The notes below the pieces were generated by a model. The model worked only from the letters and a program-made list of their open reading frames with translations. It did no database searches and was not told the DNA's origin. From a bacterium (GTDB lineage Bacteria; Cyanobacteriota; Vampirovibrionia; Gastranaerophilales; UBA9971), in assembly GCA_037147175.1 (NCBI GenBank), contig JBAWVS010000001.1:43680-107679 (forward strand): 64,000 nt of DNA, read 5' to 3'. A program made the translations under genes and the position numbers. Shown in pieces: positions 12,860 through 40,393 of the stretch; the first letter of the stretch is position 1, and every line of letters starts with the position of its first letter.

Positions 12860-13456
12860 TTATTTTGACTTCATCCTGACAAAATCTAATAGTAATTTAA
12901 ACTGACCGTTGTCAGCTGCTTTTAATGCTTGAATATATTTATTTCTTAACTCTGAAGATTCAAGAAGACTGCCTTCTCCCCAAGAAAACCGAGGCTGCCC
13001 TAAGTCTTTCATTAAAATATCTGTCATTAACCTTGAATGCCTGCCATTCCCATTTGGAAAAGGATGAATCCATACTAAACGGTGATGAAACCTTGCCCCT
13101 ATTTCATCAGGTGGATAAGTTTCATTTTCAATCCAGCATTTTGTATCTTCGAGGAGATTTCTAAGATCATTTACTATTTGCCAAGCAGGAACTCCTATGT
13201 TTCTTTCCGTTGTTCGAAATCTTCCTGCCCAACTCCAAACATCTCCGAACATTTTTTTATGAAGTTTTTTAATAAAATCTTCTGTTAAAATATTTTTTTG
13301 TTTTCTGCTAAAAACCCATTTTTCAGCATTTAATATCCCTGCACGTTCAATTTCATTAAGCTCTTTTCTTAATGTAATCCATGTAGGAATCAATTCATTT
13401 TTTTCTTCTTCCGTTAAAGGCGTTGAAGATTCATCAACTTCAAATAAATTATCCAT
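12860..13456 (-). CDS. Fic/DOC-family protein, 'mobile mystery protein B' type
   Basis: Fic motif HPFPNGNGRHSR. About 198 aa; start overlaps the stop of the upstream XRE gene (TAATG). Confidence 0.85.
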   Translation of the reverse strand: MDNLFEVDESSTPLTEEEKNELIPTWITLRKELNEIERAGILNAEKWVFSRKQKNILTEDFIKKLHKKMFGDVWSWAGRFRTTERNIGVPAWQIVNDLRNLLEDTKCWIENETYPPDEIGARFHHRLVWIHPFPNGNGRHSRLMTDILMKDLGQPRFSWGEGSLLESSELRNKYIQALKAADNGQFKLLLDFVRMKSK

Positions 13457-13917
13457 TACTCTTCATCCCATAATCTTGCCGTAGAGCCGCTGAGTAGCTC
13501 TTGGACAAGAGTTTCAATTTCATTATGTGTATTACTGACTGAAGCTTGATTTTCGAGCCTCATAGTGTGTTCTGCTTTATTTAATAATGTCATTGCCTTT
13601 TTCTTAGCTTGTTCATGTACCATTGATTCTAAATCTTGTTCAGGTACGAGTGCATATACGAATCTACAACCTAATGCCTCTGCAACACTTTCTATAGTAT
13701 TAAGTTTTAAATTTCCTAAAACTTCATCTTTTTCAATTGCTATTACTCTTGGTTGAGCAACATTCAATCTTTTTGCCAGTTGAGCTGTAGTCATCCCTAG
13801 TGCATTACGAATAGCCCTTATCCATCCTTTTTGAGGACGTACAAAAATGCTTAAATTTTTAATTTCTGAAAACTTTGCATCAAGATGTTTTCTTGCTATT
13901 TTACTACTGTTGCCCAT
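13456..13917 (-). CDS. XRE-family HTH protein, 'mobile mystery protein A' type
   Basis: HTH GMTTAQLAKRLNVAQPRVIAIE. 153 aa, always-paired architecture with the Fic partner. Confidence 0.8.
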   Translation of the reverse strand: MGNSSKIARKHLDAKFSEIKNLSIFVRPQKGWIRAIRNALGMTTAQLAKRLNVAQPRVIAIEKDEVLGNLKLNTIESVAEALGCRFVYALVPEQDLESMVHEQAKKKAMTLLNKAEHTMRLENQASVSNTHNEIETLVQELLSGSTARLWDEE

Positions 13918-26287: not shown

Positions 26288-27244
26288 TTAATGTAAAGAA
26301 GATCCGCACTTGCCGCAGAAATGAAATTCTTCAGGCAAGTATTTAGTTTTACAGGTTTTGCACTCTTTTAAATTTGCACCCCAGAGTGTTTCAGAGGATT
26401 GGTTATTTTTAGCTTTTTCTCTTATTTTTAAGTAATCAGGATTTCTTTTTTCAACAAAGCCTTGCATTCCTTCATGAACTTCAAGAGATGAAAAATGAAG
26501 GCTTAGCCAATCTTTTGCATGTCCTATAGTACTATGCCATGCGAAATCTTTCCAAAAATTAAGCTGCTGTTTAGTATATCTGGTGCATTCAGGGAATTTA
26601 TTTATAAGTTTTTGGGTTAGTTCATTAATTTTTGAATCAAGTTCTTCATAAGGCACAACATAGTTTACAAGTCCCCACTCAAGGGCTTTTTGTGCATTTA
26701 TAGATTCATTTAATAAAAGAATTTCTCTTGCCCGTCTGTCTCCGACAATAATAGGCAAAAATTGAGTTGCTCCTCCTGCTGCGACGCTTCCTATGCTTGT
26801 TCCTACATGTTTTATAGTAACGTGTTCAGCGGCTACCGCCAAATCGCAAGACATGTTAATTTCGTTTCCCCCACCGACAACCATCCCGTTGAGTCTTGCT
26901 ATTGTGGGTTTTCCGCAATTTCTCAATAAGTCATGAAATTGGTTAAAAACGCCCATCCATTTGTAAAAATCACGCGGTCGGTTTATAAATTCAGAAGCGT
27001 ATTCTTTTACGTCACCGCCTGTGCAAAAAGCTTTTTCTCCTGCTCCTGTTATTATAATTACTGCAATCCCGTCATCCCATGAGGCATCCTGAAGGGCGGT
27101 AATCATTTCTTGAAGGGTAATTATGCTGTAGGCATTGTAAACTTCGGGTCTATTTATTGTGATAGTGCCAACCCAGTCGGATTTTTTATATAGAATTTCT
27201 GAAAAATTAAATTCTTCAGGAATTTTAGGTGTAAATTGTTTCAT
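26288..27244 (-). CDS. Crotonase-superfamily protein (MenB/BadI-like) with C-terminal zinc-ribbon
   Basis: RPEVYNAY, AFCTGGDVKEY, GMVVGGGNEINMSCD. The tail CKTCKTKYLPEEFHFCGKCG carries two CxxC pairs. Confidence 0.75.
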   Translation of the reverse strand: MKQFTPKIPEEFNFSEILYKKSDWVGTITINRPEVYNAYSIITLQEMITALQDASWDDGIAVIIITGAGEKAFCTGGDVKEYASEFINRPRDFYKWMGVFNQFHDLLRNCGKPTIARLNGMVVGGGNEINMSCDLAVAAEHVTIKHVGTSIGSVAAGGATQFLPIIVGDRRAREILLLNESINAQKALEWGLVNYVVPYEELDSKINELTQKLINKFPECTRYTKQQLNFWKDFAWHSTIGHAKDWLSLHFSSLEVHEGMQGFVEKRNPDYLKIREKAKNNQSSETLWGANLKECKTCKTKYLPEEFHFCGKCGSSLH

Positions 27245-27363
27245 ATTTTTCTCCGATTAGCCTTAGTATATCATACAAAACAGGATATTTTAGCCTACCG
27301 GAAAGAAAAGAGCTAAACCGCACTTGATGAGGATGATGCTTTTGCGATTTAACATTTAAATAT

Positions 27364-27738
27364 TTAAGAATTAACCTTCGTTGTTAATTTCGTATAGGTT
27401 TCTAAAATCCATTTTTTTGTCGCATCAGCGCTTTTAAATATAGGATTAGTTACTTTTTCACCGATTGAAGTAGAATCAAAAAGCTGCTGAATACCGCCAA
27501 GCGAGAGAGAAAAGTAAGAGGCAGGAGTTTCCTTTGGTCGATCGACCCCGGATCGATAAAAAACATCGGAATTTGCAGGAACAAAATTTAAATTTAAAGA
27601 ATCTTTAATTCCGTTGTTAGCCAGTTCGGTTTTTGCTGCATTTGCGCCTGCAATAAATTTTTCAAAGAGTTTGTTTTCTTTTTGAATATTAATCTTTAAT
27701 TTAGTCCCAAAAGCAATGTTTGATTGTTGAATTTTCAT
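27364..27738 (-). CDS. Hypothetical protein (124 aa)
   Basis: ORF with SD AAAGGAAG; no recognisable motif. Preceded by conserved motif copy 2. Confidence 0.5.
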   Translation of the reverse strand: MKIQQSNIAFGTKLKINIQKENKLFEKFIAGANAAKTELANNGIKDSLNLNFVPANSDVFYRSGVDRPKETPASYFSLSLGGIQQLFDSTSIGEKVTNPIFKSADATKKWILETYTKLTTKVNS

Positions 27739-27799
27739 TTTTAGTTACTTCCTTTTGTTACTTAATTAATTAAATTTTGTATCTGCTAATTATAATAAT

Positions 27800-27855
27800 C
27801 CTAAAAATAAAAGTTGATAGTTTTATCCATTCGTTTTTACAAATCTTTACAAAAA
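27800..27855. promoter_or_regulatory. Conserved intergenic motif, copy 2
   Basis: CCTAAAAATAAAAGTTGATAGTTTTATCCATTCGTTTTTACAAATCTTTACAAAAAG. Lies between the sbcC stop and the 124-aa gene start. Confidence 0.5.
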
Positions 27856-27892
27856 GTTTTTGTAAGAAAGAGAGAAAGGCATTAAAATTTGC

Positions 27893-30289
27893 TTAATTTC
27901 GGATAATTTTACTGGAACCTTTTTCAGTATTATATTCTATGGTAATTATATTGTCTATTTCATTTTTTATGTCTTCAATATGAGTAATTAAAATTACCTG
28001 CTCGAAGTTATTTATGAGATTTCTCAATAAATTTACTACGTTATTCCTCCTATTTTCGTCAAGAGAACCGAATATTTCATCCAAAATTAATAAAGACAGA
28101 GTTTTACCTGATCGTTGTGCAATTATTTGAGAAATAGCAAGCCTTACACAAAGATTAACAAGGTCTTCTTCTCCTCCTGAGATAACCGGCTTGATTTCAC
28201 CGTCATCATGAAGGCATATTTCATATTTTTCGTTTAATTCAAGCTCTGAATATCTTCCATCAGTGAGATCTACAAGAAATTTGCTTGCAAGTTCCGAAAT
28301 CTCAGGACGTGCCTGATTGTTTAATTTTTCCCAGAATTGACCGTAAAATCTTTCTAATTCGATAAGCAGGTCTAATCGTCCTTGTTTTTCTTTTATATAA
28401 TTGAGTTTTTCCTTGTTGGAATCTTCCTGTTTTTTAATCCATTCAAGCTTATCTTTTTTATTTATTTCTTGCTCTTCAATTTTACCAAGTTCATTTTTTA
28501 AATTATAAAAAGACTCTTTTGTTAATTGAAAAGCCTTTTCGATTTTTAAAAAGCTGTCTTCTGAATAATTAAATTCTTTTAATTCTTTGTCAGCTTGCTT
28601 TTTTTTTGTTTCTATTTCTTGTTTCACTCCTATTGAGTCTTGAAGCTCATTTTTAATTTTGTCAAAGTCAGCTAACTCGGCATTTAACGTTAAAATTTGT
28701 TCGTAATTATTTCTAAGAGGAAGAATTTTTTCTCTTAAGTTGTTTAAAGTCTTATTATCAAATCCTTCCGGTATTTTTACCAGTTCTTCCTTGATTTTTA
28801 TTTTTTCAAGAGTTTTAGTTTCAATTTCATTTTTTATAATTAAAAATCGTCTTTTTTCTTCCTCATACTGACCCTGAAAGTTCATTAACTCAGCGTATTC
28901 TTTTTCTTTTTGTTCTTTTTTCTTTTTAAATTCAGTTAATTCAGCCGAATTAACATTCAATTTTTCGTATTCTGTCTTTAAAATTTGTATTTCTTTTTCT
29001 AAAGTCTTTATCTGGTCTTTAAAATTACCTGTAACTTTCTCAAATTCTCCTTTTAAGGTCCTTTCACAGGTAGGACAAATCCCTTCTTCACCTTTGTTCT
29101 TAATCAAAGAAAGTTGTTTTTGCGTTTTTTCCACTTCTTTCTGCTTTTGAGAAATTAAAACTTCGTTTTCTTTTTTACATGCAGTGATTTTCGTTTCAAT
29201 TTCCTTGATTTTTTCAATTAAATCGGAAATTTCTTCCTTAATAAAAGGTATTTTATCTACAATAAGACGTTTTTCTTTCCCTGACTTAATAACTTCTTCC
29301 TGTTGAAGAGTTTTTTCTTTAATTTCTTTGTCTAAACCCTCAATTTTAGAAAGATAAGTTTGCCGTAATGCTTCTTTTTCCTGTAATTTCTCTAATTCCT
29401 TGATTTTGAAGTCTGTTTCTTTGTACTCTGTCTCAAATTTACTTATTTCTGCAAGAATTTTTGATTTTTCTTCCAGATTTTCAAATTTTTCCTTTAAAGA
29501 AACAATATTTTTTTCCATAAAAGCACTTTTTTCTGTCAAAAATTCGATTTCTCGAGTATTTTTGTCAAATTTTTCCTTAATTTCTTTAATTTTTTCCCAT
29601 TCAGGTTCAATTTTAGCAATTTCATCGGTGCATTTGTTAAATTCTTTTTGCTTCGCGACTAAATTGTTATTAATTTCTTCCAATTCGGCTCGGGCAATCT
29701 TTTTTTCTTCTTTAAGAGAATCCAAATCAGCAATACCTTGCTTTAATCCTGTTATTTCATAGTTAATACTATTTTTATCAGTTCTTATCTGCTCTTGAAT
29801 TTCTCTTATCTTTTCATAGTTCAAAACTTTGGAAATAAATTTCCTTCTTTCAAGCGGTTTCTGGTTTCCTAGAAAATTTAGCTCTTTCTGACCTGTAAAA
29901 TAAGTATTAAAAAACTCATCTTTTGTCATTCCCAGTTTGTCTGTCAGGTATTTAGTAACTTCCTGCTGTGTTGTAACAATCGGAGCCTGATTGTCTCCCA
30001 AATAAAGCTCTGCTTTGTCCAGAAATCTTTCAATTCTGAAAACCTCGTCATCAAGGTAAAAAATAAGTTCAACCCTGACTTTTGCTCTTGCTTTAGCCTT
30101 ATTAAACTTTATTGTGTCCTTATTTCCTCTAGCAGCATCAGTTCCATATATTGACCATGTTATTGCTTCAAGAATAGTACTTTTTCCGGCACCATTAGTG
30201 CCGTTAATTATAGTAATGCCGTCTGTAAACTCTATAAAAGAGTCTTCATGCTGCCTGAAATTCTCAAGTTTTAATGATTTAAGCTTCAT
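27893..30289 (-). CDS. sbcC: Rad50/SbcC-family SMC-like ATPase
   Basis: Walker A GTNGAGKST, long coiled coil, zinc hook CPTC, signature ISGGEEDL, Walker B LLILDE. 798 aa. Confidence 0.9.
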   Translation of the reverse strand: MKLKSLKLENFRQHEDSFIEFTDGITIINGTNGAGKSTILEAITWSIYGTDAARGNKDTIKFNKAKARAKVRVELIFYLDDEVFRIERFLDKAELYLGDNQAPIVTTQQEVTKYLTDKLGMTKDEFFNTYFTGQKELNFLGNQKPLERRKFISKVLNYEKIREIQEQIRTDKNSINYEITGLKQGIADLDSLKEEKKIARAELEEINNNLVAKQKEFNKCTDEIAKIEPEWEKIKEIKEKFDKNTREIEFLTEKSAFMEKNIVSLKEKFENLEEKSKILAEISKFETEYKETDFKIKELEKLQEKEALRQTYLSKIEGLDKEIKEKTLQQEEVIKSGKEKRLIVDKIPFIKEEISDLIEKIKEIETKITACKKENEVLISQKQKEVEKTQKQLSLIKNKGEEGICPTCERTLKGEFEKVTGNFKDQIKTLEKEIQILKTEYEKLNVNSAELTEFKKKKEQKEKEYAELMNFQGQYEEEKRRFLIIKNEIETKTLEKIKIKEELVKIPEGFDNKTLNNLREKILPLRNNYEQILTLNAELADFDKIKNELQDSIGVKQEIETKKKQADKELKEFNYSEDSFLKIEKAFQLTKESFYNLKNELGKIEEQEINKKDKLEWIKKQEDSNKEKLNYIKEKQGRLDLLIELERFYGQFWEKLNNQARPEISELASKFLVDLTDGRYSELELNEKYEICLHDDGEIKPVISGGEEDLVNLCVRLAISQIIAQRSGKTLSLLILDEIFGSLDENRRNNVVNLLRNLINNFEQVILITHIEDIKNEIDNIITIEYNTEKGSSKIIRN

Positions 30290-30302
30290 AAAAAATATCT
30301 TA

Positions 30303-31448
30303 TCATATACTTACAGCCTTTAAATAATCTTTTGCCAGATTGTTAAACATTTCCTGATTCAACCCCTGCGCCAATTCAAAAACATTTAACTCTGCATCAA
30401 GTGCTTCATGAAGGTTTTTTCGTTTTTCGACAGGGTTTCCTTCCTTGTCAAAAGTCAGATTCACGTCCTTTTTTATGAAATTAAGCATGAAATGAACTGC
30501 TTTTTTTCTGTATTCCCTGATTTTAGTGTAATTTAGATTTCTTATCGCCAGAGGGTCTATGTTATCAAGGGTTATTCTAACTATAGAATTTTCAAAATCA
30601 TTTATTTTTGCTACTTCTTCATCAATATAGGCGTTAATTTCCTCTGCGGTGAGAGTATCCGCATTAATTTTTTTTATATCAACCACTGTTCTTGGTGTTT
30701 GGAGCGGATGAAACGTTATTTTTTTTGTTTCAAGGTTATATTCAATGAAACCTTTAGGGTCTTTGGCTTCTTGCCAAATATTTGAGCTGGTTCTTTCTAT
30801 CGCTCCAGAGTAATATATGTTTTCTTCAAGCTCTGTATATTTGTGATAGTGCCCCAGAGCTACATAATCCCACTCTGAACCGTTAATCTTCTCTGAATCA
30901 ACAAGTTCTTCGGAGCTATGTTTGGATAATTCAGGGCATTTTACGCTGTTATAAGAACAATGCATAGTCAAAACATTGTATTTATAACCTCTATCAGGAG
31001 TTAAAGTTGTTTTATTGAGTTCATACAAAGCATTATGCGGAATGCATAAAATGCTTGCATTTAAATTCTCGAAGACAACCTGTTCAATTTGCCCATCTAC
31101 AACTTTAACATTTGGAATGGTAGTTTCAAGAAGTTTTAGAATACTTCCTGATTCCACCGACTTTGAAGACTCATGGTTGCCTGAAATTAGAACTATAGGA
31201 GCATTGCAGTTTTTTCTGAAATTATTAAGAAGCTTAATCGTCAAATAAATTGTGGAATTGCTCGGTCTTGGCTTGTGAAAAATATCTCCCGCCATCAAAA
31301 CAAGGTCAGGTTTAAGTTCTGAAACCTTATCAAGTGCTTCTTTAAATGTTTTGACAACATCTTTTTCCCGAATATTCAAGCCTTCAGGACTTAATTTATT
31401 ATATGACCTGTAGCCCAGATGCAAATCGGCAAGATGAATAATTTTCAT
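30303..31448 (-). CDS. sbcD: Mre11/SbcD-family nuclease (calcineurin-like phosphoesterase)
   Basis: HLADLHLG, GDIFH, GNHE, MHC and GHYH phosphoesterase motifs. 381 aa. Confidence 0.9.
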   Translation of the reverse strand: MKIIHLADLHLGYRSYNKLSPEGLNIREKDVVKTFKEALDKVSELKPDLVLMAGDIFHKPRPSNSTIYLTIKLLNNFRKNCNAPIVLISGNHESSKSVESGSILKLLETTIPNVKVVDGQIEQVVFENLNASILCIPHNALYELNKTTLTPDRGYKYNVLTMHCSYNSVKCPELSKHSSEELVDSEKINGSEWDYVALGHYHKYTELEENIYYSGAIERTSSNIWQEAKDPKGFIEYNLETKKITFHPLQTPRTVVDIKKINADTLTAEEINAYIDEEVAKINDFENSIVRITLDNIDPLAIRNLNYTKIREYRKKAVHFMLNFIKKDVNLTFDKEGNPVEKRKNLHEALDAELNVFELAQGLNQEMFNNLAKDYLKAVSI

Positions 31449-31454
31449 AGTGTT

Positions 31455-33440
31455 TTACTCTTTTAACCAGTCGTCAATATCTGTATTGCCTACCGATGGA
31501 GAAAGTTTTTCTTCAAAGCTTTCTCTTTGAGGCTTTTTTCGCAATATATTTTTAAAATATTCGAGAGGATTGTCTTTGCCTTTCCTCTCGGTTTCATTGA
31601 AAGCCCTTTTTACTTCTTCTTTATCGACATCGCAAATAGCGTTTTTAATATCATTCGCTTTGATTTTATGGTCAAGGCGTTTGAAATTAATAATCATTGC
31701 ATCTTCAAAATTTCTTTCCGCTACGGGAGGAAACTTTTTAGAGCCGTCCTGACTTGTCATAAAAGGCGGGCGCGGGAATCTTACAAAGATATACTGATTA
31801 AAATGCGGATGCCTGATGAGAAGTTTCCCTTTTTCAAGTACTGTTAATTCGGCTTTAATACTTGAAGGCATGACACTGTAGCCCTGAGAAGCCAGTTCGT
31901 CCATGTCCATACGTCCGTAAATACTTGTTCCGCAGTTTCCGACAATTCTTTTGTGAACCTGTGATTTAAACTGCTGTGCAGAAAAGAGGATTAAGCCCAA
32001 GTATCTTCCTCTTTCGGAAATTTCCAGCAGGGTTTGTTTGAGATAAGAATTTCCAGAGTCGCCGGAAGCGTATTTATTAAGCTCATCCACAAAAATTATG
32101 ACCTTATCAACGCCAAGTTTCTTGTTTTCAAGCTGTTCTTTCAGTTTTTCAACAGTTCTGGTAAACACCAAATCCTGAGCAATAGGAATCATTCCTGCTA
32201 TATCTACAACATAAACCCCTTTGTCTTTAAATTCTCCCCATGGTAAGTCATGCATGGAAGAATCATTAGTCACAAGTCCTTTGCAGCGGGTTTTTATGTT
32301 CATAAGCCTGTTATAAATTTTTCTTATTGTAGGGATTGCATGCCCTCTCCACTGTTGTTTCCCTTCGCCGTTGCCTTTTTCTTCATCTCCTGCTTCTGCG
32401 AAAATCCTCTGAAACCATTCTTCAAGGTCGTTAAAATTCTTTATTTTCTTATGTACGCAATAATGAGAATCCGGTTTATCTTGATTTATCACTTTTTCTT
32501 TCATGAAAGAAAGAAAAGCATCCGCCTTTGCATCGATATCATCATTGTTTAAAAGCACCTGCACATGGTCAAAAATCTCTTCCAAACCCCAGCTTAATGG
32601 ATTTACGTTGTGCATAAGGTGATCATTTGTTCTTAAGGTGTTTAAATTTACTCCGTCATCCTTATAAGGAGCGTAATATTCAACATTTTCAAAAGCATTT
32701 ACTTCCATACCAAGCTTTTTATACATTTCTTTTTCTTCTTCAGAAAGATTTTCCGCAGGCTGGTCAAGAAACAAAAGGTCATAACCTTTTACATTAAAAA
32801 GAACCGTAGCAATTTTTTCATTGTTATCGCTCTGATACTTTTGAAAAATGCTGCTCAAAAGGAATTCTATAATGCTGGTCTTTGTTGCAAGCCCTGAAAC
32901 TCCTGTAACATTCAAATGTGCGGCTTCCGGCCCTAAAAGGAAATTAGAATCAAGATAAACAGGAGATTGGTTTTCCCCGTTTACGTAAAGCCCGACAGGG
33001 ATTTGGGAATCTTCAAATTTATCCATTCTCAGGGATTTTTTTACGTCAGCATCCTCCGCCAGAAAGACATTTCCGATCGGGACAGGCTGAATAGGTTCTT
33101 CAGGTTCCATTTTTAAGACAGATGCCGTGTAATACCTTATTTCCGGTCTTTCTGTCTGGGCAAGGCGGTTTTCTTGAGGCTCCCTATCGGCACTTATGTA
33201 ATCATGCATCGGTGATTCCAGGTCGGTGTAGCTTATGCCTTCATTTACAATTCCGTAAATCGTTCTTTTGTATTCCGCATTTTTTTTATCGGAATAAACC
33301 CTGTCGCTCTCAATCTTGACAATGGTTCCAATTCCTACAGGAGAGTCAAGATTTGTCCAAAAACTGAAAGTCTGTGCAGTATTAGGCTTTTTTTCAGTTG
33401 CAACAACTCTTCCTATAACTTTATTTTCTGTTTCGTTCAT
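31455..33440 (-). CDS. herA: HerA-like (FtsK/HerA clade) ATPase with N-terminal HAS-barrel-like region and atypical P-loop
   Basis: N-terminus VIGRVVATEKKP..FSFWT...VGIGTIVKIE is barrel-like. Walker B VIIFVDELNKY. ILFSAQQFKSQVHKRIVGNCGTSIYGRM resembles the HerA xxQRPSxxxxxxxxQCNxxxxxR block. The P-loop reads TGVSGLATKTS rather than GxxGSGKS. Confidence 0.7.
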   Translation of the reverse strand: MNETENKVIGRVVATEKKPNTAQTFSFWTNLDSPVGIGTIVKIESDRVYSDKKNAEYKRTIYGIVNEGISYTDLESPMHDYISADREPQENRLAQTERPEIRYYTASVLKMEPEEPIQPVPIGNVFLAEDADVKKSLRMDKFEDSQIPVGLYVNGENQSPVYLDSNFLLGPEAAHLNVTGVSGLATKTSIIEFLLSSIFQKYQSDNNEKIATVLFNVKGYDLLFLDQPAENLSEEEKEMYKKLGMEVNAFENVEYYAPYKDDGVNLNTLRTNDHLMHNVNPLSWGLEEIFDHVQVLLNNDDIDAKADAFLSFMKEKVINQDKPDSHYCVHKKIKNFNDLEEWFQRIFAEAGDEEKGNGEGKQQWRGHAIPTIRKIYNRLMNIKTRCKGLVTNDSSMHDLPWGEFKDKGVYVVDIAGMIPIAQDLVFTRTVEKLKEQLENKKLGVDKVIIFVDELNKYASGDSGNSYLKQTLLEISERGRYLGLILFSAQQFKSQVHKRIVGNCGTSIYGRMDMDELASQGYSVMPSSIKAELTVLEKGKLLIRHPHFNQYIFVRFPRPPFMTSQDGSKKFPPVAERNFEDAMIINFKRLDHKIKANDIKNAICDVDKEEVKRAFNETERKGKDNPLEYFKNILRKKPQRESFEEKLSPSVGNTDIDDWLKE

Positions 33441-33503
33441 ATTAAAACCTTATTTTTATACTTATAATAATACTTTAACAATATAAATTTTGTTATAAAA
33501 AAA

Positions 33504-34565
33504 TCAAGAAAGACTTTCAATCATTGTCCAACCGGGAGCTTTTGCTTTCAAATAGTCTTCGCAGTATTTAATGGGATAAATCATCCTATCCCAACGTGAA
33601 GCAGGAAATCCGACTGGTTTTGTTTCCAGCAAAATCCATGAACTTATCTCATCAACTCTGCTAATAAGTTCTTTTTTAGCTGGAATTTCTACTCTTACAA
33701 TCCCAAAATCGTTTACACCATTGCGTTTGTCATGGTGCAGTCTTAAATACCATGTAAAAATATCTTTTTTCTTCCCTGTTTTATCATATGGTTGAAAAAC
33801 GCTTGAACGTTGACCTTTCTCCATAGAATAAAGTTCACACATCTTTTCAAAAGGGAAATAATAAACTCCGTGAGATTTGACTATTCCTGCAATATTTGAA
33901 CTTTCCAGAATATTTTGGCTTTTAGTATTCAAAGTCCCGTCCACAAAAAGCCAGCCGTCTTTAAATTTTGAGTCCAGCCATTTATTTGTCAGTTTATCTT
34001 CAATTTTTCTTCTTTTTTCCTGTATTTCACTGTGAGCCTGTTGGATAAATTCATCGGGGAATACGGGATAGGCTTTTCTTTTTCCCTGATTTGGAATTAT
34101 GCCGACATTTTTATAATTATTTTTTATTTTTTCGATTTCTTTAAGCTCAAAATAGTGTGAAGGGCAATTATTATTTTCTTTCACAGGAATATAAAAAATT
34201 CCCTCCCCTATTTCTAAGTCTGTAGAATGCAAAGTTTTATCAGTCCTTTTTAAAACTGCCGCTCCGACATAACCGTAAATAACAGGGATAGTCCGAAGAT
34301 AGCAAAGTATTTTTTTTCTTTCAATTCCGTCAAGAAAATAAGAAAACCCTGAAGCAGCTGTTTTTATTTGAATTTTTTTAAATTTTAATTCTCCGCAGGG
34401 TTCATCTTCTTTTATAATGTCTGCTTTTCTTTGTTCAAAATCATTTTCAGGTTTGGAAAAGTTATCATTTTCGGAATTAAAAAAAGTTTTGGGGATTTTT
34501 ATATCTTCCCCGTTAAGTTTTTTTTCTTTTATAAAACCCTGAAAAATTTTTAATTCTAAAGTCAT
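33504..34565 (-). CDS. nurA: NurA-like nuclease
   Basis: Two DG motifs at NurA-like spacing (YFLDGIERKK near residue 78, WLFVDGTLN near 210) and GIVKSHG. 353 aa, immediately upstream of herA. Confidence 0.6.
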   Translation of the reverse strand: MTLELKIFQGFIKEKKLNGEDIKIPKTFFNSENDNFSKPENDFEQRKADIIKEDEPCGELKFKKIQIKTAASGFSYFLDGIERKKILCYLRTIPVIYGYVGAAVLKRTDKTLHSTDLEIGEGIFYIPVKENNNCPSHYFELKEIEKIKNNYKNVGIIPNQGKRKAYPVFPDEFIQQAHSEIQEKRRKIEDKLTNKWLDSKFKDGWLFVDGTLNTKSQNILESSNIAGIVKSHGVYYFPFEKMCELYSMEKGQRSSVFQPYDKTGKKKDIFTWYLRLHHDKRNGVNDFGIVRVEIPAKKELISRVDEISSWILLETKPVGFPASRWDRMIYPIKYCEDYLKAKAPGWTMIESLS

Positions 34566-34702
34566 TTAAAACCCTTCTCTTTTGAATTAATTTTAAGGCT
34601 TATTATAAAATTTTGAAAGATATTTTTTAAATGAACTTCGCCGATATTTTATTATTTGTAATGACAAAAATATTTTGATTTTAAAATAATATAAAAATTT
34701 GC

Positions 34703-34780
34703 AAAAAAAATGCCGCTCTTTTTGGGGCGGCTACTAGACTCGGGGGAGGAGGTTTGGGTAGGGTCTTTATGACCTTACTT
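34703..34780 (-). ncRNA. Candidate sRNA, copy A (5' hairpin, C-rich anti-SD tract, intrinsic terminator)
   Basis: Minus-strand reading: GGUC-AUAAA-GACC, CUACCCAAACCUCCUCCCCCGAGUCUAGUA, GCCGC-loop-GCGGC, then A+U8. Strand and ends are inferred only. Confidence 0.35.
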
Positions 34781-34859
34781 TTACTATATCGGTATTTTAT
34801 TTTAAAACTTTAATGTTTTTTTAAAATAAAAAGGGAAATTTTTATTCCTGTTATTGAGC

Positions 34860-34935
34860 AAAAAAAATGCCGCTCTTTTGGGGCGGCTACTAGACTCGGG
34901 GGAGGAGGTTTGGGTATGGTCGATTAGGACCTTAC
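34860..34935 (-). ncRNA. Candidate sRNA, copy B (tandem duplicate of copy A, 157 bp away)
   Basis: The 58-nt core is identical to copy A except for a 1-nt indel in the terminator loop. The 5' hairpin keeps the GGUC/GACC stem with a different loop (CUAAUC). Confidence 0.35.
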
Positions 34936-34973
34936 ATTATTTGTTTCGACATTCTTTTATAAAAACTTTAATG

Positions 34974-35008
34974 ATTTCCTGCTTTTGTTACAACATCTTT
35001 ACAAAAAA
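34974..35008. promoter_or_regulatory. Conserved intergenic motif, copy 3 (looser)
   Basis: TTTCCTGCTTTTGTTACAACATCTTTACAAAAAAA aligns with the TTTTACAAA-n-CTTTACAAAAA end of copies 1 and 2. It abuts repeat unit B. Confidence 0.35.
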
Positions 35009-35250
35009 ACTCAACTTAAAATAATATTTTAATTAAAAATTTTTTAAAAAAAATACTGAAATTAAAAGAATTTTTAGACCCGATTAATGCCCGACCGTTT
35101 AAATTAATAACTCTTCAAAATAACATTATTTTTGAATATTAGACAGGCAGGTTATATAAAATTTTTGAATATTAAACAAAAATTAAACAGTATAAACAGT
35201 CGTTTAGTTTACCGTTTAAATACATGAGTATATTTTTGTAGGGAGGAAAA

Positions 35251-35373
35251 ATGAGTAACATTGCGGATGGTTTTTTAAGAATACTAAAAAGTCACTTATA
35301 TTTGTCATTTCCGATTATTTTGATTTCTATTCTTAATACTTTTATATTTATGTTTTTATTTAAAACTTTTTAA
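35251..35373 (+). CDS. Small hydrophobic protein (40 aa), below the ORF-track cutoff
   Basis: My translation: MSNIADGFLRILKSHLYLSFPIILISILNTFIFMFLFKTF. Strong SD GGGAGGA ends 4 nt before the ATG. One predicted TM helix. Confidence 0.45.
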   Translation: MSNIADGFLRILKSHLYLSFPIILISILNTFIFMFLFKTF

Positions 35374-35395
35374 GCAAATAAACATGTTTTGAACT

Positions 35396-35998
35396 TTATT
35401 TATTTTTCGAATTGTTTAATATTGTTAAAACGCTTTTTAGATGCTCTTCCAGTTCTTCTTTAGAAACATTATCCCTTACACCAAATAGAATTTCATTGTA
35501 ATATTTACCTTTTAATAGCGAAATTAAATGATCAGCATATTTTGAGGGAGAAGAGACCTGTATTAACCCTTTTGCTGCGGCTTTTGAAATAAATTTTTCC
35601 AGCATAATGTAGGTTATCGAAGGGCCTATGTTATAAAAATTCTTTGTTATGTTAGGATTAGTAGCCATTTCGCTTAAAACTATGCGATGAACCGCGCATA
35701 ATTTCTCGTCGATTACAAGTTTTAGAAAATTTTTGCAAAATTTTTCCAGTAAAATATCAAAATTTTCTTCAGTAACTTCTACGTCTTCAATATCTTTATA
35801 GTATTTTTTGCTTTGATTAATCACAATTTTTTGCAAAATAATTTGTTTATTTTCAAAATTATTATAAATAGTTTGCTTGGAAACACCTGCTTCTTTCGCC
35901 ACTTCATCCATAGAAGTGTTATTATAACCGCATTTTAAAAATAATTTAAAGGCGGCATTAAATATTAACTCTGATTTGTTTTTCATAATAATTCGCAT
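35396..35998 (-). CDS. TetR/AcrR-family transcriptional regulator
   Basis: HTH TSMDEVAKEAGVSKQTIYNNFENK. 200 aa; start may be the second Met at 35986. Confidence 0.9.
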   Translation of the reverse strand: MRIIMKNKSELIFNAAFKLFLKCGYNNTSMDEVAKEAGVSKQTIYNNFENKQIILQKIVINQSKKYYKDIEDVEVTEENFDILLEKFCKNFLKLVIDEKLCAVHRIVLSEMATNPNITKNFYNIGPSITYIMLEKFISKAAAKGLIQVSSPSKYADHLISLLKGKYYNEILFGVRDNVSKEELEEHLKSVLTILNNSKNK

Positions 35999-36020
35999 TT
36001 TCTAGTTCATTGGATCATTT

Positions 36021-36063
36021 TACAGAAAATAGACTTGACAGTCCAGTCCACTTTCTGTAGTCT
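36021..36063 (+). promoter_or_regulatory. Sigma70-like promoter (TTGACA-17 nt-TAGTCT) bracketed by inverted repeat TACAGAAA/TTTCTGTA; candidate TetR operator
   Basis: TTGACA at 36035-36040; IR arms at 36021-36028 and 36052-36059. Lies in the divergent region between the TetR gene and the TPR-PKS operon. Confidence 0.55.
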
Positions 36064-36102
36064 TAACAATATTCTTAATAATTTTCAAATGGAGAATAAA
36101 AA

Positions 36103-36762
36103 ATGATTAAAAAAAGAGCATATTTTTTTATTTGCTTAATTGCATTGATGTCTAATGTGGGTTGTCTTGCCGTCAGTGCATTTAATTTAATTTCTTTTGA
36201 TGAAGAAATAGCGCAAATTCGTTATAATGTAACTGCTATCGAACATATATATTCCAAGAACGATAATGCAGGAAAAACCAGAGCGTACGAAGAACTTATC
36301 AAAAAAGCCGATAAATTAGTTGTACAATATCCTGATAGGGCAGAACCCTATGTTTGGGAAGGAATAGCTTTATCTGCTCAGGCAAAATACAAAGGAATCG
36401 GAGCAATATCAAATGTAAATACAGCAAAAGCGTTGTTGGAAAAATCAGTAAAAATTAATCCCGATGCTTCGGGTGCGGCAGGGCTGAATGCCCTTGGAAT
36501 GTTGTATTATAAAGTTCCTGCATGGCCTGTTAGCTTCGGTAATGATAAAAAAGCTCAAGAATATTTCTATAGAGCCCTATCAATATCTTCCAACCTCGAT
36601 ACAAATTATAGATACGGTGAATTTTTATTGGAAGAATCCAAAATAAAAGAAGGACTGAGTTATCTTAATAAAGCTTTAAATTTCCCCTTAAGGTCAGGCA
36701 GAAAAGAAGATCCGTTAAAAAAAGAAGATATTAAAAAACTAATTGAAAAGTATAAAGGGTAA
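36103..36762 (+). CDS. TPR-repeat protein with signal/lipoprotein-like N-terminus
   Basis: LMSNVGC lipobox-like sequence; TPR-like helical repeats (AEPYVWEGIAL, ALGMLYYK, AQEYFYRAL). Confidence 0.6.
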   Translation: MIKKRAYFFICLIALMSNVGCLAVSAFNLISFDEEIAQIRYNVTAIEHIYSKNDNAGKTRAYEELIKKADKLVVQYPDRAEPYVWEGIALSAQAKYKGIGAISNVNTAKALLEKSVKINPDASGAAGLNALGMLYYKVPAWPVSFGNDKKAQEYFYRALSISSNLDTNYRYGEFLLEESKIKEGLSYLNKALNFPLRSGRKEDPLKKEDIKKLIEKYKG

Positions 36763-36771
36763 AAATAAAGT

Positions 36772-37818
36772 ATGACGTGTGTGATAAAAACAAATACTTT
36801 GCTTCCTGAATATAAGCATTCTGAGCAGGAAGCCATAGAACAATATAAAAATTGGGTATCGGAAAAAAGCCAATCGTTTCAAAACAAAGCAATAAAAATC
36901 TTTGAAAGTGCTGTTATAAAAGAAAAACATACAATTGCACCTGCTGAAGTTCTTTTTAGCAAAAGAACTTTTGAAGAAACAAATAATTTATACAAAGAAA
37001 AAGCAGTGGAATTTGGAACAAAAATTTTAGCGGATACATTGCAAAAAACAGAAATTAAACCTGAAGAATTGGACTTTATCATAACCACATCCTGTACAGG
37101 GTTTATGATTCCTTCATTTGATACTTATGTGATTAACAGTTTGGGATTGAGAAAAGACATAAAGAAGCTTCCGATAACCGAAATTGGTTGTGCGGCAGGA
37201 GCATCAGCATTAATTTATGCCAACGATTTTTTAAAAGCATATCCTGATAAGAAAGCAGCTGTTATTACTCTTGAATTTCCTAGTAATACAATCCAGTTGG
37301 ATGATTATAGCTGGGATAATATTGTAGGGACAGCATTATTTGCTGATGGAATAGGATGCGCAATACTGGGAGAAAATATTCGGGGGTGTCCTGAAATTAT
37401 TGATTCACAAATGCATCAGGTGGTCGATACAACTGAAATTTTAGGTTATAACATTACAAACACAGGTTTGAAAATGAATCTCGATAAAACTATTCCGAAT
37501 GTGATTGAAGAACATTTTGAACAGATAGTTTCGGATTTTTTAAACACAAATGGCTTAAAAATAGAAGATGTAGACCATTTTCTGATTCATCCGGGCGGAA
37601 TAAAAATTCTTAACAAAATTGAAAATATTCTTTCTAAATATAATAAAAATGTCGATATTTCCAGAAAAATTATGGAAACATACGGCAATTTATCGAGCAG
37701 TACAATACTTTTTATTTTAAATGAATATATGAATAATACTGCCGCTGGAGAAACTGCTTTAGTATTGAGCTTTGGTCCCGGATTTTCAGCGCATCAGTTA
37801 CTTTTAAGATGGAATTAA
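36772..37818 (+). CDS. Type III polyketide synthase (chalcone/stilbene synthase family)
   Basis: Catalytic Cys (TTSCTGFMIPS), His (FLIHPGGIKIL) and Asn (YGNLSSSTILF), plus the GPGF loop. 348 aa. Confidence 0.9.
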   Translation: MTCVIKTNTLLPEYKHSEQEAIEQYKNWVSEKSQSFQNKAIKIFESAVIKEKHTIAPAEVLFSKRTFEETNNLYKEKAVEFGTKILADTLQKTEIKPEELDFIITTSCTGFMIPSFDTYVINSLGLRKDIKKLPITEIGCAAGASALIYANDFLKAYPDKKAAVITLEFPSNTIQLDDYSWDNIVGTALFADGIGCAILGENIRGCPEIIDSQMHQVVDTTEILGYNITNTGLKMNLDKTIPNVIEEHFEQIVSDFLNTNGLKIEDVDHFLIHPGGIKILNKIENILSKYNKNVDISRKIMETYGNLSSSTILFILNEYMNNTAAGETALVLSFGPGFSAHQLLLRWN

Positions 37819-38411
37819 AAAAAATGAACAAAAAGAAAAAAATATTATTAATAGACTTACACCCTGACAGTCAAAGTTTTTGCTCTGTTATGGCACAAAA
37901 ATACGTAGACGGTGCTATTGCTTCAGAATTTGAGGTGAAAATTATCAAGGTCAGAGAATTGAATTTCGATAATGTGCTTCATTTCGGTTATAGAGAAATT
38001 CAAGCTCTTGAACCAGACTTGATTCAAGCACAGGAAGAAATTAAGTGGTGCAGCCACCTTGTATTTATCACTCCAGTGTGGTGGGGCTCTATTCCTTCCA
38101 GTGCAAAGGGCTTTATTGACAGAGTTTTATTAAGCGGATTTTCTTATAAGTTTGATATAAAGAAAAAAAGACCTGTCGGTTTACTGAAAAACAGGTCGGC
38201 AAGCGTGATTTATACACAGGGAGCGCCTTTTATTTACAGCAAATTTTTTACAGGAGATGCCTTCTGGAATTTTATGAAAATTTGTATTCTTCAGTTTTGC
38301 GGCTTTTCAAACATTAAAAGAAAATGCTTTGATAAAGTAAAGTCGGGAACAGATAAAGAAAGATTGAAAATTTTAAACGAAACTTATGAACTTGGAAAAA
38401 AAGGATTTTAA
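37809..38411 (+). CDS. Flavodoxin-like-fold NAD(P)H (quinone) oxidoreductase family protein
   Basis: KILLIDLHPDSQSF and ITPVWWGSIPSSAKGFIDRV resemble the NQO1/MdaB/KefF family. Alternative start at 37824. Confidence 0.7.
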   Translation: MELKKMNKKKKILLIDLHPDSQSFCSVMAQKYVDGAIASEFEVKIIKVRELNFDNVLHFGYREIQALEPDLIQAQEEIKWCSHLVFITPVWWGSIPSSAKGFIDRVLLSGFSYKFDIKKKRPVGLLKNRSASVIYTQGAPFIYSKFFTGDAFWNFMKICILQFCGFSNIKRKCFDKVKSGTDKERLKILNETYELGKKGF

Positions 38412-38414
38412 GAT

Positions 38415-39182
38415 ATGACTATTCATGACAACAAGTCCAAATTACAACTTCTGGAAGATGTGGGATTTGTAAAATATTTTACCGGAAACTCATGGAGTGA
38501 GTATAACAGGAAATTTTTTGATAATCTTGCCAAAAAATATGATGCCACAAACGCTTTGCATAGCTTTGGCACGAAAAGTATTATTGACAAAAAATCAATT
38601 GAAAAAATCCATTTTCCTGTAAACGCCTCTGTGCTTGATTTATGTACAGGAAGTGGAGATATCTGCATTAGGATAGCAAAGAAACATCCTGATTTTAAAA
38701 TTATAGCTCTCGATGCATCGGAAAAAATGCTTGAAATAGCAAAACAAAAAGCAAAAGGCTGCAATAATATTGATTTTGTAAAAGGTGACGCCTTAAGCCT
38801 GCCTTATGAAGATAATTCATTTGATGTTTTAATAATAAGTTTCGGACTTCGGAATCTTGAAAATATTCAGGCAGGACTTAAAGAAATGCAAAGAGTTGTA
38901 AAATCCGGCGGTTATGTAGTTAATATTGATCAGGGAAAACCTGAAAATCCTGTCTTTAAAGCTCTTTATCAAGTTTATTTTTACGGCATAGCTCCATTAA
39001 TAGGGAAATTAATTTTTCATATGGGAGAATTTAATTCTTTCAAATATTTGCCCGAATCTAACAAATATTTTCCTTCCCAGCAAGAACTTGTGAAAATTTT
39101 TGAAGAAGTCGGATTTAAAGATATAAATAATTACAATTACTGGCTTGGCGCGATTTCTCAACAAATTGCGAGGGTCGAATAA
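38415..39182 (+). CDS. ubiE: UbiE/MenG-family quinone C-methyltransferase
   Basis: FDNLAKKYDATNALHSFG, SAM motif LDLCTGSGD, and YLPESNKYFPSQQELVKIFEEVGF match UbiE/MenG blocks. Confidence 0.8.
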   Translation: MTIHDNKSKLQLLEDVGFVKYFTGNSWSEYNRKFFDNLAKKYDATNALHSFGTKSIIDKKSIEKIHFPVNASVLDLCTGSGDICIRIAKKHPDFKIIALDASEKMLEIAKQKAKGCNNIDFVKGDALSLPYEDNSFDVLIISFGLRNLENIQAGLKEMQRVVKSGGYVVNIDQGKPENPVFKALYQVYFYGIAPLIGKLIFHMGEFNSFKYLPESNKYFPSQQELVKIFEEVGFKDINNYNYWLGAISQQIARVE

Positions 39183-40393
39183 TGAAATTATCGATTGCTA
39201 CAAATTTTGATAATGAATTAATAGAACAAATAAAAGATTATCCTGTCGAAGAGCTTTATGGAAAACTTTCAAAGGACTTTGTCGGAGGAGGAAGATCTTC
39301 CTATATGCTTGCACCTGTTGAAAAAAACATATTAGTAGAACATATAGCCCATGCAAAAAAATACAATATAGGATTCAATTATCTTTTGAATGCAAGTTGT
39401 ATAGATAACCTTGAAACAACCAGAGATGGGCAGAAACAAATCAGAAAATTGCTGGACTGGCTTACAAAAATAGGCGTAACTTCACTTACTGTGTCGACTC
39501 CATTTTTATTGCAGACAATAAAAAAGAGTTATCCGCACTTTCGTGTGAGAATTTCTGTTTTTGCGTGTGTTAATAACCTTAGAAAAGCACAATACTGGGA
39601 AGAAATGGGTGCAGATATAATTGCGCTTGATTCGCATGTATTAAACAAAGATTTTAAAACACTCAAGCTTTTAAAAGAAAAACTTTCCTGCGGGATGGAA
39701 ATTTTGACTAACGGAAATTGCCTTATGAATTGCATGATGGCTCATGTGCATCCGAATTTAATGGCTCATAGCTCGCAATCAAAGCATACTTCCGACGGAT
39801 TTGTTATAGACCACTGTTTTTTGTACTGTCAAAAAAAGAAAACGGAAGAACCCGCAAATTATTTAAAGTCAGACTGGATACGCCCTGAGGATATACATTA
39901 CTATGAAGAAATAGGCTATGAAAACTTTAAGCTGGTAGAAAGAAATATCAAAACGGAAGAAATGGTAAAAAGAGTAAAAGCTTATTCCAATCGTTCTTAT
40001 GACGGAAACTTACTTGATTTGGTTCAGGGGTTTGGATTTAAGGACCAACAAAAACTTTCAGCAAATTCAAAGTTTAATAAACTGGCATTTTTCTTTAAAC
40101 CTACAAAAATTAATATGTTTAAATTAAATAAAATTAAAGAACTCTGCACAAGAAAAGGAATGTTGTTGCCGCTTAAATCTGTTCCCGTTTATATTGATAA
40201 CAAAAAACTGGATGGATTTATTGAACCTTTTTTAAAAAGATCCTGTATGGATTTAAATTGCGGGATTGACTGCAAACATTGCGATTACTATGCCGACAAA
40301 GTTATCACAATTGATACTGCATTTCAAAAAGATTGTATTCAACTCCATAAAGATATAGATGATGATATTTATTCAGGAAAAATGTGGAAATAA
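39182..40393 (+). CDS. U32-peptidase-family-like protein (possible UbiU/UbiV-type Fe-S hydroxylase)
   Basis: N-terminus MKLSIATNFDNELIEQI, FNYLLNA, and the Cys cluster EILTNGNCLMNCMMAH...DHCFLYC recall U32 (PF01136) members. Recognised from memory only. The ATG overlaps the ubiE stop. Confidence 0.5.
   Translation: MKLSIATNFDNELIEQIKDYPVEELYGKLSKDFVGGGRSSYMLAPVEKNILVEHIAHAKKYNIGFNYLLNASCIDNLETTRDGQKQIRKLLDWLTKIGVTSLTVSTPFLLQTIKKSYPHFRVRISVFACVNNLRKAQYWEEMGADIIALDSHVLNKDFKTLKLLKEKLSCGMEILTNGNCLMNCMMAHVHPNLMAHSSQSKHTSDGFVIDHCFLYCQKKKTEEPANYLKSDWIRPEDIHYYEEIGYENFKLVERNIKTEEMVKRVKAYSNRSYDGNLLDLVQGFGFKDQQKLSANSKFNKLAFFFKPTKINMFKLNKIKELCTRKGMLLPLKSVPVYIDNKKLDGFIEPFLKRSCMDLNCGIDCKHCDYYADKVITIDTAFQKDCIQLHKDIDDDIYSGKMWK

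Follow-up and report, generated by a model that had tools for sequence, protein, structure and literature searches.

We analysed a stretch of 64,000 nucleotides (nt) from a bacterium of the Gastranaerophilales (Cyanobacteriota; Vampirovibrionia; contig JBAWVS010000001.1 of assembly GCA_037147175.1), referred to below as the window. Four genes at its positions 27893 to 34565 had been read from the sequence alone, in what we call the original prediction, as an operon encoding a NurA-like protein, a HerA-type ATPase, an Mre11/SbcD phosphoesterase and a Rad50/SbcC protein. We found that profile searches, sequence comparison and fold comparison uphold all four identities and that the genes lie in one tight cluster. 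The motifs of the four proteins are intact, their genes are closely packed and the gene order is kept across phyla. The locus is one more member of a widespread bacterial NurA–HerA–Mre11–Rad50 module that had already been glimpsed in Oceanithermus. The genes, each an open reading frame (ORF) with its length in amino acids (aa), and a candidate promoter are as follows.

33504..34565, minus strand: nurA, bacterial-type NurA nuclease, first gene of the operon (ORF, 353 aa; profiles and AlphaFold2 (AF2)/Foldseek)
31455..33440, minus strand: herA, bacterial-type HerA hexameric DNA translocase/ATPase (ORF, 661 aa; phmmer and Foldseek)
30303..31448, minus strand: mre11/sbcD, Mre11-family phosphoesterase nuclease (ORF, 381 aa; Pfam and NCBIfam)
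27893..30289, minus strand: rad50/sbcC, Rad50-family SMC-like ABC ATPase with a CPTC zinc hook (ORF, 798 aa; Pfam)
34602..34631, minus strand: candidate promoter of sigma-70 type (TTTAAA-18-TATAAT), lying some 37 nt before the start of nurA (consensus scan)

The ORFs and the junction sequences agree exactly with the predicted layout of four co-directional minus-strand genes separated, from the 5′ gene on, by 63, 6 and 13 nt, and every motif that had been quoted for the four proteins was found in the translations. A consensus scan revealed no convincing minus-strand terminator within the four-gene block. The candidate promoter comes from a consensus scan only, a weak form of evidence in AT-rich DNA; it is positioned downstream of two terminator hairpins with U-runs (approximately 34701-34730 and 34858-34886).

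Identity of the four proteins

The 353-aa protein is a NurA of the bacterial type. Its translation contains the motifs FLDG, VDG and GIVKSHG. The hidden Markov model check proposed with the original prediction, PF09376 for this protein and PF01935 for the 661-aa protein, turned out to be uninformative, not refuting: neither protein had a single match in Pfam or NCBIfam, even at E≤10. Searching the PDB by phmmer with the single NurA sequence also returned nothing, and no archaeal NurA was matched by profiles or by Foldseek. A family profile of 47 sequences matched Deinococcus radiodurans NurA (7f6d_H, 3.5e-6) and Thermotoga maritima TM1739 (7.6e-3), and a broader profile made from 50%-cluster representatives matched the same two proteins at 2.3e-10 and 1.7e-11, respectively. 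PF09376 itself was matched by 11 of the 47 close relatives (best 2.8e-8) and by 10 of 44 distant relatives (best 4.8e-7), in a family that holds 1428 representatives at 50% clustering. The AF2 model, with a predicted local distance difference test score (pLDDT) of 84.4, has the RNase H/PIWI-like fold of NurA. Its sole significant Foldseek match was D. radiodurans NurA (7f6d_G; 3.7e-12, probability 1.0), and the next, far weaker matches were Argonaute PIWI domains. Five residues never vary among 44 divergent family members: D79 (FLDG), E189, D209 (VDG), K230 and E293. The FLDG aspartate aligns with FVDG of TM1739.

The 661-aa protein is a HerA that belongs to the bacterial, Deinococcus/Thermotoga-type clade. 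It matched D. radiodurans HerA (PDB 7f6d_B) by phmmer at 6e-45, and the missing family match is therefore a gap in profile sensitivity. The translation contains VIIFVDE and SAQQF...GNCGTSIYGR. Its P-loop, GVSGLATKTS, aligns with GISGVATKTS of the D. radiodurans protein, the two having G-x-S-G-x-A-T-K-T-S in common, and the Walker B segment FVDELNKYA aligns with VLDELNKYA, sharing DELNKYA. This GxSGLATKTS loop is non-canonical, being one residue longer than the GxxxxGK[ST] consensus, and is invariant in the HerA alignment. K187-T188 and D452-E453 align with the Walker residues of D. radiodurans HerA, K175/T176 and D487/E488 (PMC9960219), and are invariant in 23 homologues; they supply the Walker A Lys-Thr and Walker B Asp-Glu of a RecA-like ASCE ATPase core. 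The AF2 model (pLDDT 76) showed all-beta strands at residues 8-71 and 101-164, and its overall fold is that of HerA, with a HAS-barrel at the N-terminus, a core of RecA type and helices at the C-terminus.

Foldseek ranked D. radiodurans HerA first (3.7e-35, approximately 620 columns, template-modelling (TM) score 0.65-0.79), followed by the HerA proteins of Thermococcus kodakarensis (1.4e-22) and Sulfolobus solfataricus (2.5e-19), with the defence HerAs of the Sir2-HerA and DUF4297-HerA systems below the archaeal ones at around 1e-17. In the fold comparison the protein was 25% identical to D. radiodurans HerA versus 13-15% to archaeal HerA, and sequence searches retrieved no archaeal HerA or NurA. 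The D. radiodurans NurA–HerA complex (PDB 7f6d, 7wrw, 7wrx) thus gave the best sequence and fold matches for both window proteins. The two systems have the bacterial-type NurA fold in common, the HAS-barrel/RecA-like/helical-bundle architecture of HerA, and a nurA gene immediately upstream of herA. They differ in that HerA is only about 25% and NurA about 13% identical, that the window HerA has an extra C-terminal region of about 60 aa, and that the nurA–herA pairs of D. radiodurans and Thermus are not linked to sbcCD. By analogy with 7f6d, the window HerA would act as a hexameric ring, bound to a NurA dimer, for the translocation of double-stranded DNA. More than 6000 HerA homologues were found. 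Identity was 54-56% to cyanobacterial orthologues and 51-53% to homologues in Gemmatimonadota and Armatimonadota, and the subfamily that these form with Melainabacteria is held together at more than 48% identity.

Mre11 matched Pfam Metallophos at 6.7e-15 and exceeded the cutoff of the NCBIfam sbcd model TIGR00619 (89.4 bits versus 77.65). Phosphoesterase motifs I to V are all present (DLHLG, GDIFH, GNHE, the histidine in LTMHCS, and GHYH), and the top PDB matches were the Mre11 proteins of Methanocaldococcus jannaschii and Pyrococcus furiosus, at about 2e-17. Rad50 matched SMC_N, AAA_27 and SbcC_Walker_B in Pfam. In NCBIfam, the archaeal Rad50 model PRK03918 (1.5e-56) came ahead of the sbcc model TIGR00618 (8.4e-31), and no equivalog cutoff was reached, the best score being the 191.9 bits of PRK03918 against a cutoff of 700 bits. 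The protein has the split ABC head and coiled coil of Rad50/SbcC with CPTC at the coil apex, together with Walker A (GTNGAGKST), signature (SGGEEDL), Walker B (LLILDE) and H-loop (LITH) motifs. Its PDB matches were to P. furiosus (3e-30), M. jannaschii (1e-27), T. maritima (4e-16) and Escherichia coli SbcC (6e-8). The E. coli SbcCD pair resembles this half of the operon in family, in adjacency and in having the nuclease gene first; it differs in the length of SbcC, 1048 aa compared with 798 aa for the window Rad50, and in lacking HerA and NurA as partners.

Conservation of the gene order in other bacteria

We scanned one genome per species in GTDB with two HerA motifs and confirmed at least 568 loci, of which the best 80 came mainly from Gemmatimonadota, with others from Armatimonadota, Longimicrobiales, Gastranaerophilales and cyanobacteria. 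Gene order was assessed by tblastn with the four window proteins, and 56 loci had enough flanking sequence. The order nurA-herA-mre11-rad50, on one strand, was found in 50 of the 56, mostly in Gemmatimonadota, where the four-gene operon is near-universal among the sampled members, and also in Armatimonadota and Melainabacteria. Because the same four genes recur in the same order in so many other genomes, their adjacency in the window is not a matter of chance. The proteins did not fall into unrelated families and the relatives did not lack synteny, the two outcomes that would have spoken against the original prediction; rather, the synteny shows that the linkage is selected.

Across 54 loci, mean pairwise identity was 0.59 for HerA, 0.50 for Mre11, 0.46 for Rad50 and 0.35 for NurA. 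Distance matrices computed for the four proteins are correlated with one another (Mantel r 0.38-0.84, with 0 of 500 permutations reaching the observed value, n=54 loci), a pattern that fits co-inheritance of the four genes. In Gemmatimonadota the flanks are also kept, with a thymidine kinase gene in 24 of 29 loci, an aminotransferase gene in 22, a GNAT gene in 27 and DeaD in 16. The module therefore occupies a stable site in the core chromosome of this phylum, not a variable island.

Two Melainabacteria loci, L002 and L090, keep the four-gene order despite unrelated genes inserted between herA and mre11. This junction is a recurrent insertion point in several loci. The insert in L090 (11139-13355) consists of a nucleotidyltransferase/HEPN pair and PIN-type toxin–antitoxin genes, and that in L002 (12075-13768) of a pilin-like gene and one gene of unknown kind on the opposite strand. 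About 15 Gemmatimonadota loci, for example L053 (5824-6732) and L078 (10582-11457), have a gene of about 0.9 kb there, with weak similarity to DUF6263. Cyanobacteria also contain herA genes with no partner beside them, as in Synechococcus sp. PCC 7502 (L001, 10001-11971) and in L008 and L025. In Synechococcus PCC 7502 a 666-aa P-loop protein is encoded divergently from herA; we weighed it as an alternative HerA partner and rejected it, as it is unlike NurA (hhalign probability 0.1%) and was not found in the other cyanobacterial loci.

The original prediction had described the operon as archaeal-style and had implied that it is rare in bacteria, and neither description stood. For the archaeal operon the order given is herA, mre11, rad50, nurA, with all four genes essential in Sulfolobus islandicus (PMC4351679). 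The window locus has the same four families, the same herA-mre11-rad50 core order and the same presumed function as this operon in Sulfolobus, Pyrococcus and Thermococcus, and its Mre11 and Rad50 score best to archaeal models and structures. However, nurA comes first instead of last, HerA and NurA are of the bacterial type, and the host is a mesophilic bacterium; the locus therefore has neither the gene order nor the HerA and NurA of an archaeal-type operon. As to rarity, the operon also occurs in Gemmatimonadota, Armatimonadota, other Melainabacteria, plasmids of cyanobacteria, Chloroflexota and Streptomyces, a Nonomuraea replicon and Oceanithermus profundus. In the last of these, SbcD and SbcC are encoded downstream of nurA-hepA, an arrangement that has been likened to the archaeal architecture (Blesa et al. 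2017, PMC5448004). This nurA-hepA(herA)-sbcD-sbcC arrangement is, going by its description, a bacterial four-gene layout like that of the window; it belongs to another phylum, Deinococcota, and was noted in passing.

HerA relatives were found on 6 of 72,556 plasmids, all at ≤30% identity, and among 50,697 phage records in just two, at 27-34%. In the six distant loci that we retrieved, profile searches revealed a NurA-family gene beside the HerA-like gene in each and SbcD and SbcC as well in five. In these five replicons (loci L084, L085, L087, L088 and L089), HerA is 26-30% identical to the window protein. Plasmids of Chlorohelix, Sphaerospermopsis and Aulosira have the gene order of the window, whereas the genes run in the archaeal order, herA-sbcD-sbcC-nurA, on a Streptomyces plasmid and the Nonomuraea replicon. 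The Chlorohelix (L085, 5741-13149) and Streptomyces (L088, 6608-14195) modules adjoin genes for ImmA/IrrE, TIR-domain and transposase proteins and Wadjet-like genes (TIGR02678, TIGR02680, DUF2397). A Marinitoga virus carries the nurA-herA pair only. These plasmid neighbourhoods suggest a conflict-related branch of the module.

Surroundings of the operon in the window

Protein homologues assign the host to the Melainabacteria, non-photosynthetic relatives of cyanobacteria, as a Gastranaerophilales-like member. The 64-kb window is all housekeeping in character, with metabolic, efflux and cell-envelope genes. Its content includes glutamine synthetase, lysine-pathway genes, enoyl-CoA hydratases, hemerythrin, SSB, RND and ABC efflux systems and polysaccharide synthesis genes. 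We found no mobile-element genes in it, and nothing recognisably defence-related beyond one Fic/HTH pair. This pair, adjacent Fic-domain and HTH_3 genes at approximately 12860-13917 on the minus strand (L093, 11466-12523), is toxin–antitoxin-like and the only conflict-type element in the 64 kb. The GC content of the operon resembles that of its surroundings.

Downstream of rad50, at a distance of 154 nt, lies a 124-aa ORF (27364-27738, minus strand) with its own Shine-Dalgarno-like sequence. It had no match in Pfam, NCBIfam or PADLOC and no homologue in any related locus, and because no other locus has it, it is apparently not a member of the module; it is an orphan gene.

Upstream of nurA, two tandem small RNA (sRNA)-like units of about 80 nt lie at 34698-34945 on the minus strand, with a period of 157 nt and an identical core of 35 nt. 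Each unit has a hairpin at its 5′ side, GGUC...GACC, with different loops in the two copies, then an unpaired C-rich stretch, CCCAAACCUCCUCCCCCGAG, that is anti-Shine-Dalgarno-like in appearance, and ends in a GCCGC/GCGGC hairpin followed by U8, as is typical of an intrinsic terminator. Fold z-scores were -2.7 and -4.0, and an Rfam search of 27000-36200 at E≤1 gave no match. Between these repeats and a TetR gene lies a 40-aa ORF, MSNIADGFLRILKSHLYLSFPIILISILNTFIFMFLFKTF (35251-35373, plus strand), with a GGGAGG Shine-Dalgarno sequence just upstream; going by its sequence, the predicted peptide is small and hydrophobic, resembling type I toxins and small membrane proteins. The original prediction had pointed to the RNA-like repeats and the small peptide as adding interest to the operon. 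Both are present, but neither appears to accompany the operon in relatives. The repeat is missing from all 93 other loci, those of Melainabacteria relatives included, and is for that reason not part of the repair module. The TetR regulator is divergent from a cluster at 35396-40393 that encodes RMD1-like, type III polyketide synthase, flavodoxin-like reductase, UbiE-type methyltransferase and U32 peptidase proteins and may serve quinone or alkylresorcinol-type biosynthesis.

Function of the module

We think it likely that the four genes are a chromosomal housekeeping operon for a complete machine that processes the ends of DNA double-strand breaks (DSBs), composed of bacterial-type NurA–HerA and Mre11–Rad50. 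Judging by homology with D. radiodurans NurA–HerA and with archaeal and bacterial Mre11–Rad50, Rad50 dimers tethered through the CPTC zinc hook would, with Mre11, recognise DNA ends and clean those that are blocked or form hairpins. The HerA hexamer would then thread the duplex, driven by ATP, through its central pore into a NurA dimer on the HAS-barrel face, and NurA would part the strands and cut them so that the 3′ single-stranded tails required by RecA remain. The module would be old and bacterial, inherited with its host lineages and with no recent import from archaea. Translocation-coupled DNA end resection has been described for D. radiodurans NurA–HerA (PMC9960219). Considering that the operon has housekeeping surroundings, that its flanks are conserved in Gemmatimonadota and that it is nearly absent from plasmids and phages, a chromosomal DSB-end machine is favoured over an anti-phage system.

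Several points weigh against this reading. Loss of nurA or herA in D. radiodurans and Thermus changed damage resistance only modestly or even raised it, and what NurA–HerA does in bacteria has been called controversial (PMC9960219). In a 2026 study, T. kodakarensis HerA–NurA degraded both strands, and a role in resection was questioned (PMC12977600). A DSB-end function for the window subfamily is itself drawn from homology. The correlated distance matrices are no proof of functional coupling, because such correlation is expected for any vertically inherited genes. The linkage is also not obligatory within Melainabacteria: in L091, nurA-herA stands with no mre11-rad50 near it, and L092 and L007 each have a single gene of the set, nurA in the former and herA in the latter. 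Furthermore, flanks of up to 10 kb around the HerA orthologues of oxyphotobacteria contained no homologue of NurA, Mre11 or Rad50.

The last of these points speak for another account, in which nurA-herA and mre11-rad50 are two independent pairs that are neighbours by chance, with NurA–HerA acting in DNA transfer, chromosome segregation or replication-fork processing, as has been discussed for Thermus HepA and archaeal HerA. The splits in L091, L092 and L007, the insertions in L002 and L090 and the persistence of HerA alone in oxyphotobacteria all fit it, as does the much stronger conservation of HerA relative to its partners, which hints at extra constraints. We nevertheless consider it decidedly improbable, given that 50 of 56 loci keep the four genes together in one order and that the association recurs independently in very distant subfamilies and in both gene orders, a recurrence that favours functional coupling over coincidence. 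The notion that the window bacterium recently acquired an archaeal herA-mre11-rad50-nurA operon by horizontal transfer can be very nearly dismissed. It draws on the better scores of Mre11 and Rad50 to archaeal models and structures than to E. coli-type SbcCD, and on the assumption in the literature that bacterial herA-nurA is of archaeal origin (PMC12977600; PMC5448004). However, HerA and NurA are of the bacterial type, have no archaeal sequence match and rank bacterial folds above archaeal ones; the position of nurA is unlike that in the archaeal operon, and the GC content is unremarkable. Gemmatimonadota and Armatimonadota moreover have the same operon, with HerA proteins 51-53% identical to that of the window, so that a transfer, if there was one, would have been ancient and not peculiar to this genome.

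It is unlikely, too, that the four genes in the window are an anti-phage or anti-plasmid system that destroys the free ends of invading linear DNA, in the manner of the defensive face of RecBCD or of HerA-Sir2 and HerA-DUF4297. Sir2-HerA/Nezha and DUF4297-HerA also have a HerA-family hexameric ATPase beside a nuclease or NADase effector gene. The idea draws on the nurA-herA pair of the Marinitoga virus, on the toxin–antitoxin genes inserted in the L090 cluster and on the antiviral role proposed in the T. kodakarensis study (PMC12977600). It draws also on the distant plasmid-borne four-gene modules beside ImmA/IrrE, TIR, transposase and Wadjet-like genes, and a defence function is more plausible for these versions than for the window locus. 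Weak PADLOC matches point the same way, with HerA matching mad8 (4.7e-7, partial) and Rad50 matching LmuB, mad3 and PbeC, but NurA and Mre11 had no PADLOC match, HerA matched defence models at about 1e-3, and the Rad50 matches reflect generic SMC-head similarity. We rejected membership in MADS, Lamassu or Pbe, since the locus lacks the partner genes of these systems and the matches are generic to the ATPase head. The effector gene in the window is nurA, in contrast to Sir2 or DUF4297, and we found no Sir2, DUF4297, methyltransferase or LmuA-like gene at the locus. The HerA fold is nearer to NurA-partnered HerAs than to defence HerAs, the locus lies among housekeeping genes at a site that is conserved with its flanks across Gemmatimonadota species, and close orthologues are absent from the plasmid and phage collections. 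Finally, 51% HerA identity between phyla is atypical of arms-race genes. The suggestion in the original prediction of a HerA-effector conflict system consequently found no support at this locus.

One further reading is possible, and we offer it tentatively. The module, instead of being a sporadic import from archaea, may be an ancient, vertically inherited main pathway of DSB resection in whole phyla, namely Gemmatimonadota, Armatimonadota and Melainabacteria, standing in for RecBCD/AddAB. HerA, exceptionally well conserved and also kept alone in photosynthetic cyanobacteria, may have an additional essential role, and the sister modules on plasmids, in contexts like defence islands, may be a derived conflict-related offshoot.

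Recent structural papers describe bacterial NurA–HerA as confined to 'a few bacteria such as Deinococcus-Thermus', and our literature search found no paper that describes the operon in Gemmatimonadota, Melainabacteria or cyanobacteria. The bacterial spread of the module is much broader than this literature states. The survey also reveals a blind spot in annotation, as this subfamily of HerA and NurA is missed completely by Pfam and NCBIfam, and it indicates tractable carriers for testing, such as cultivated Gemmatimonas. Where the flanks sufficed, the HerA–NurA subfamily was usually in one operon with Mre11–Rad50, and no comparative argument so far speaks more strongly than this repeated linkage for bacterial NurA–HerA working with Mre11–Rad50 on DNA ends.

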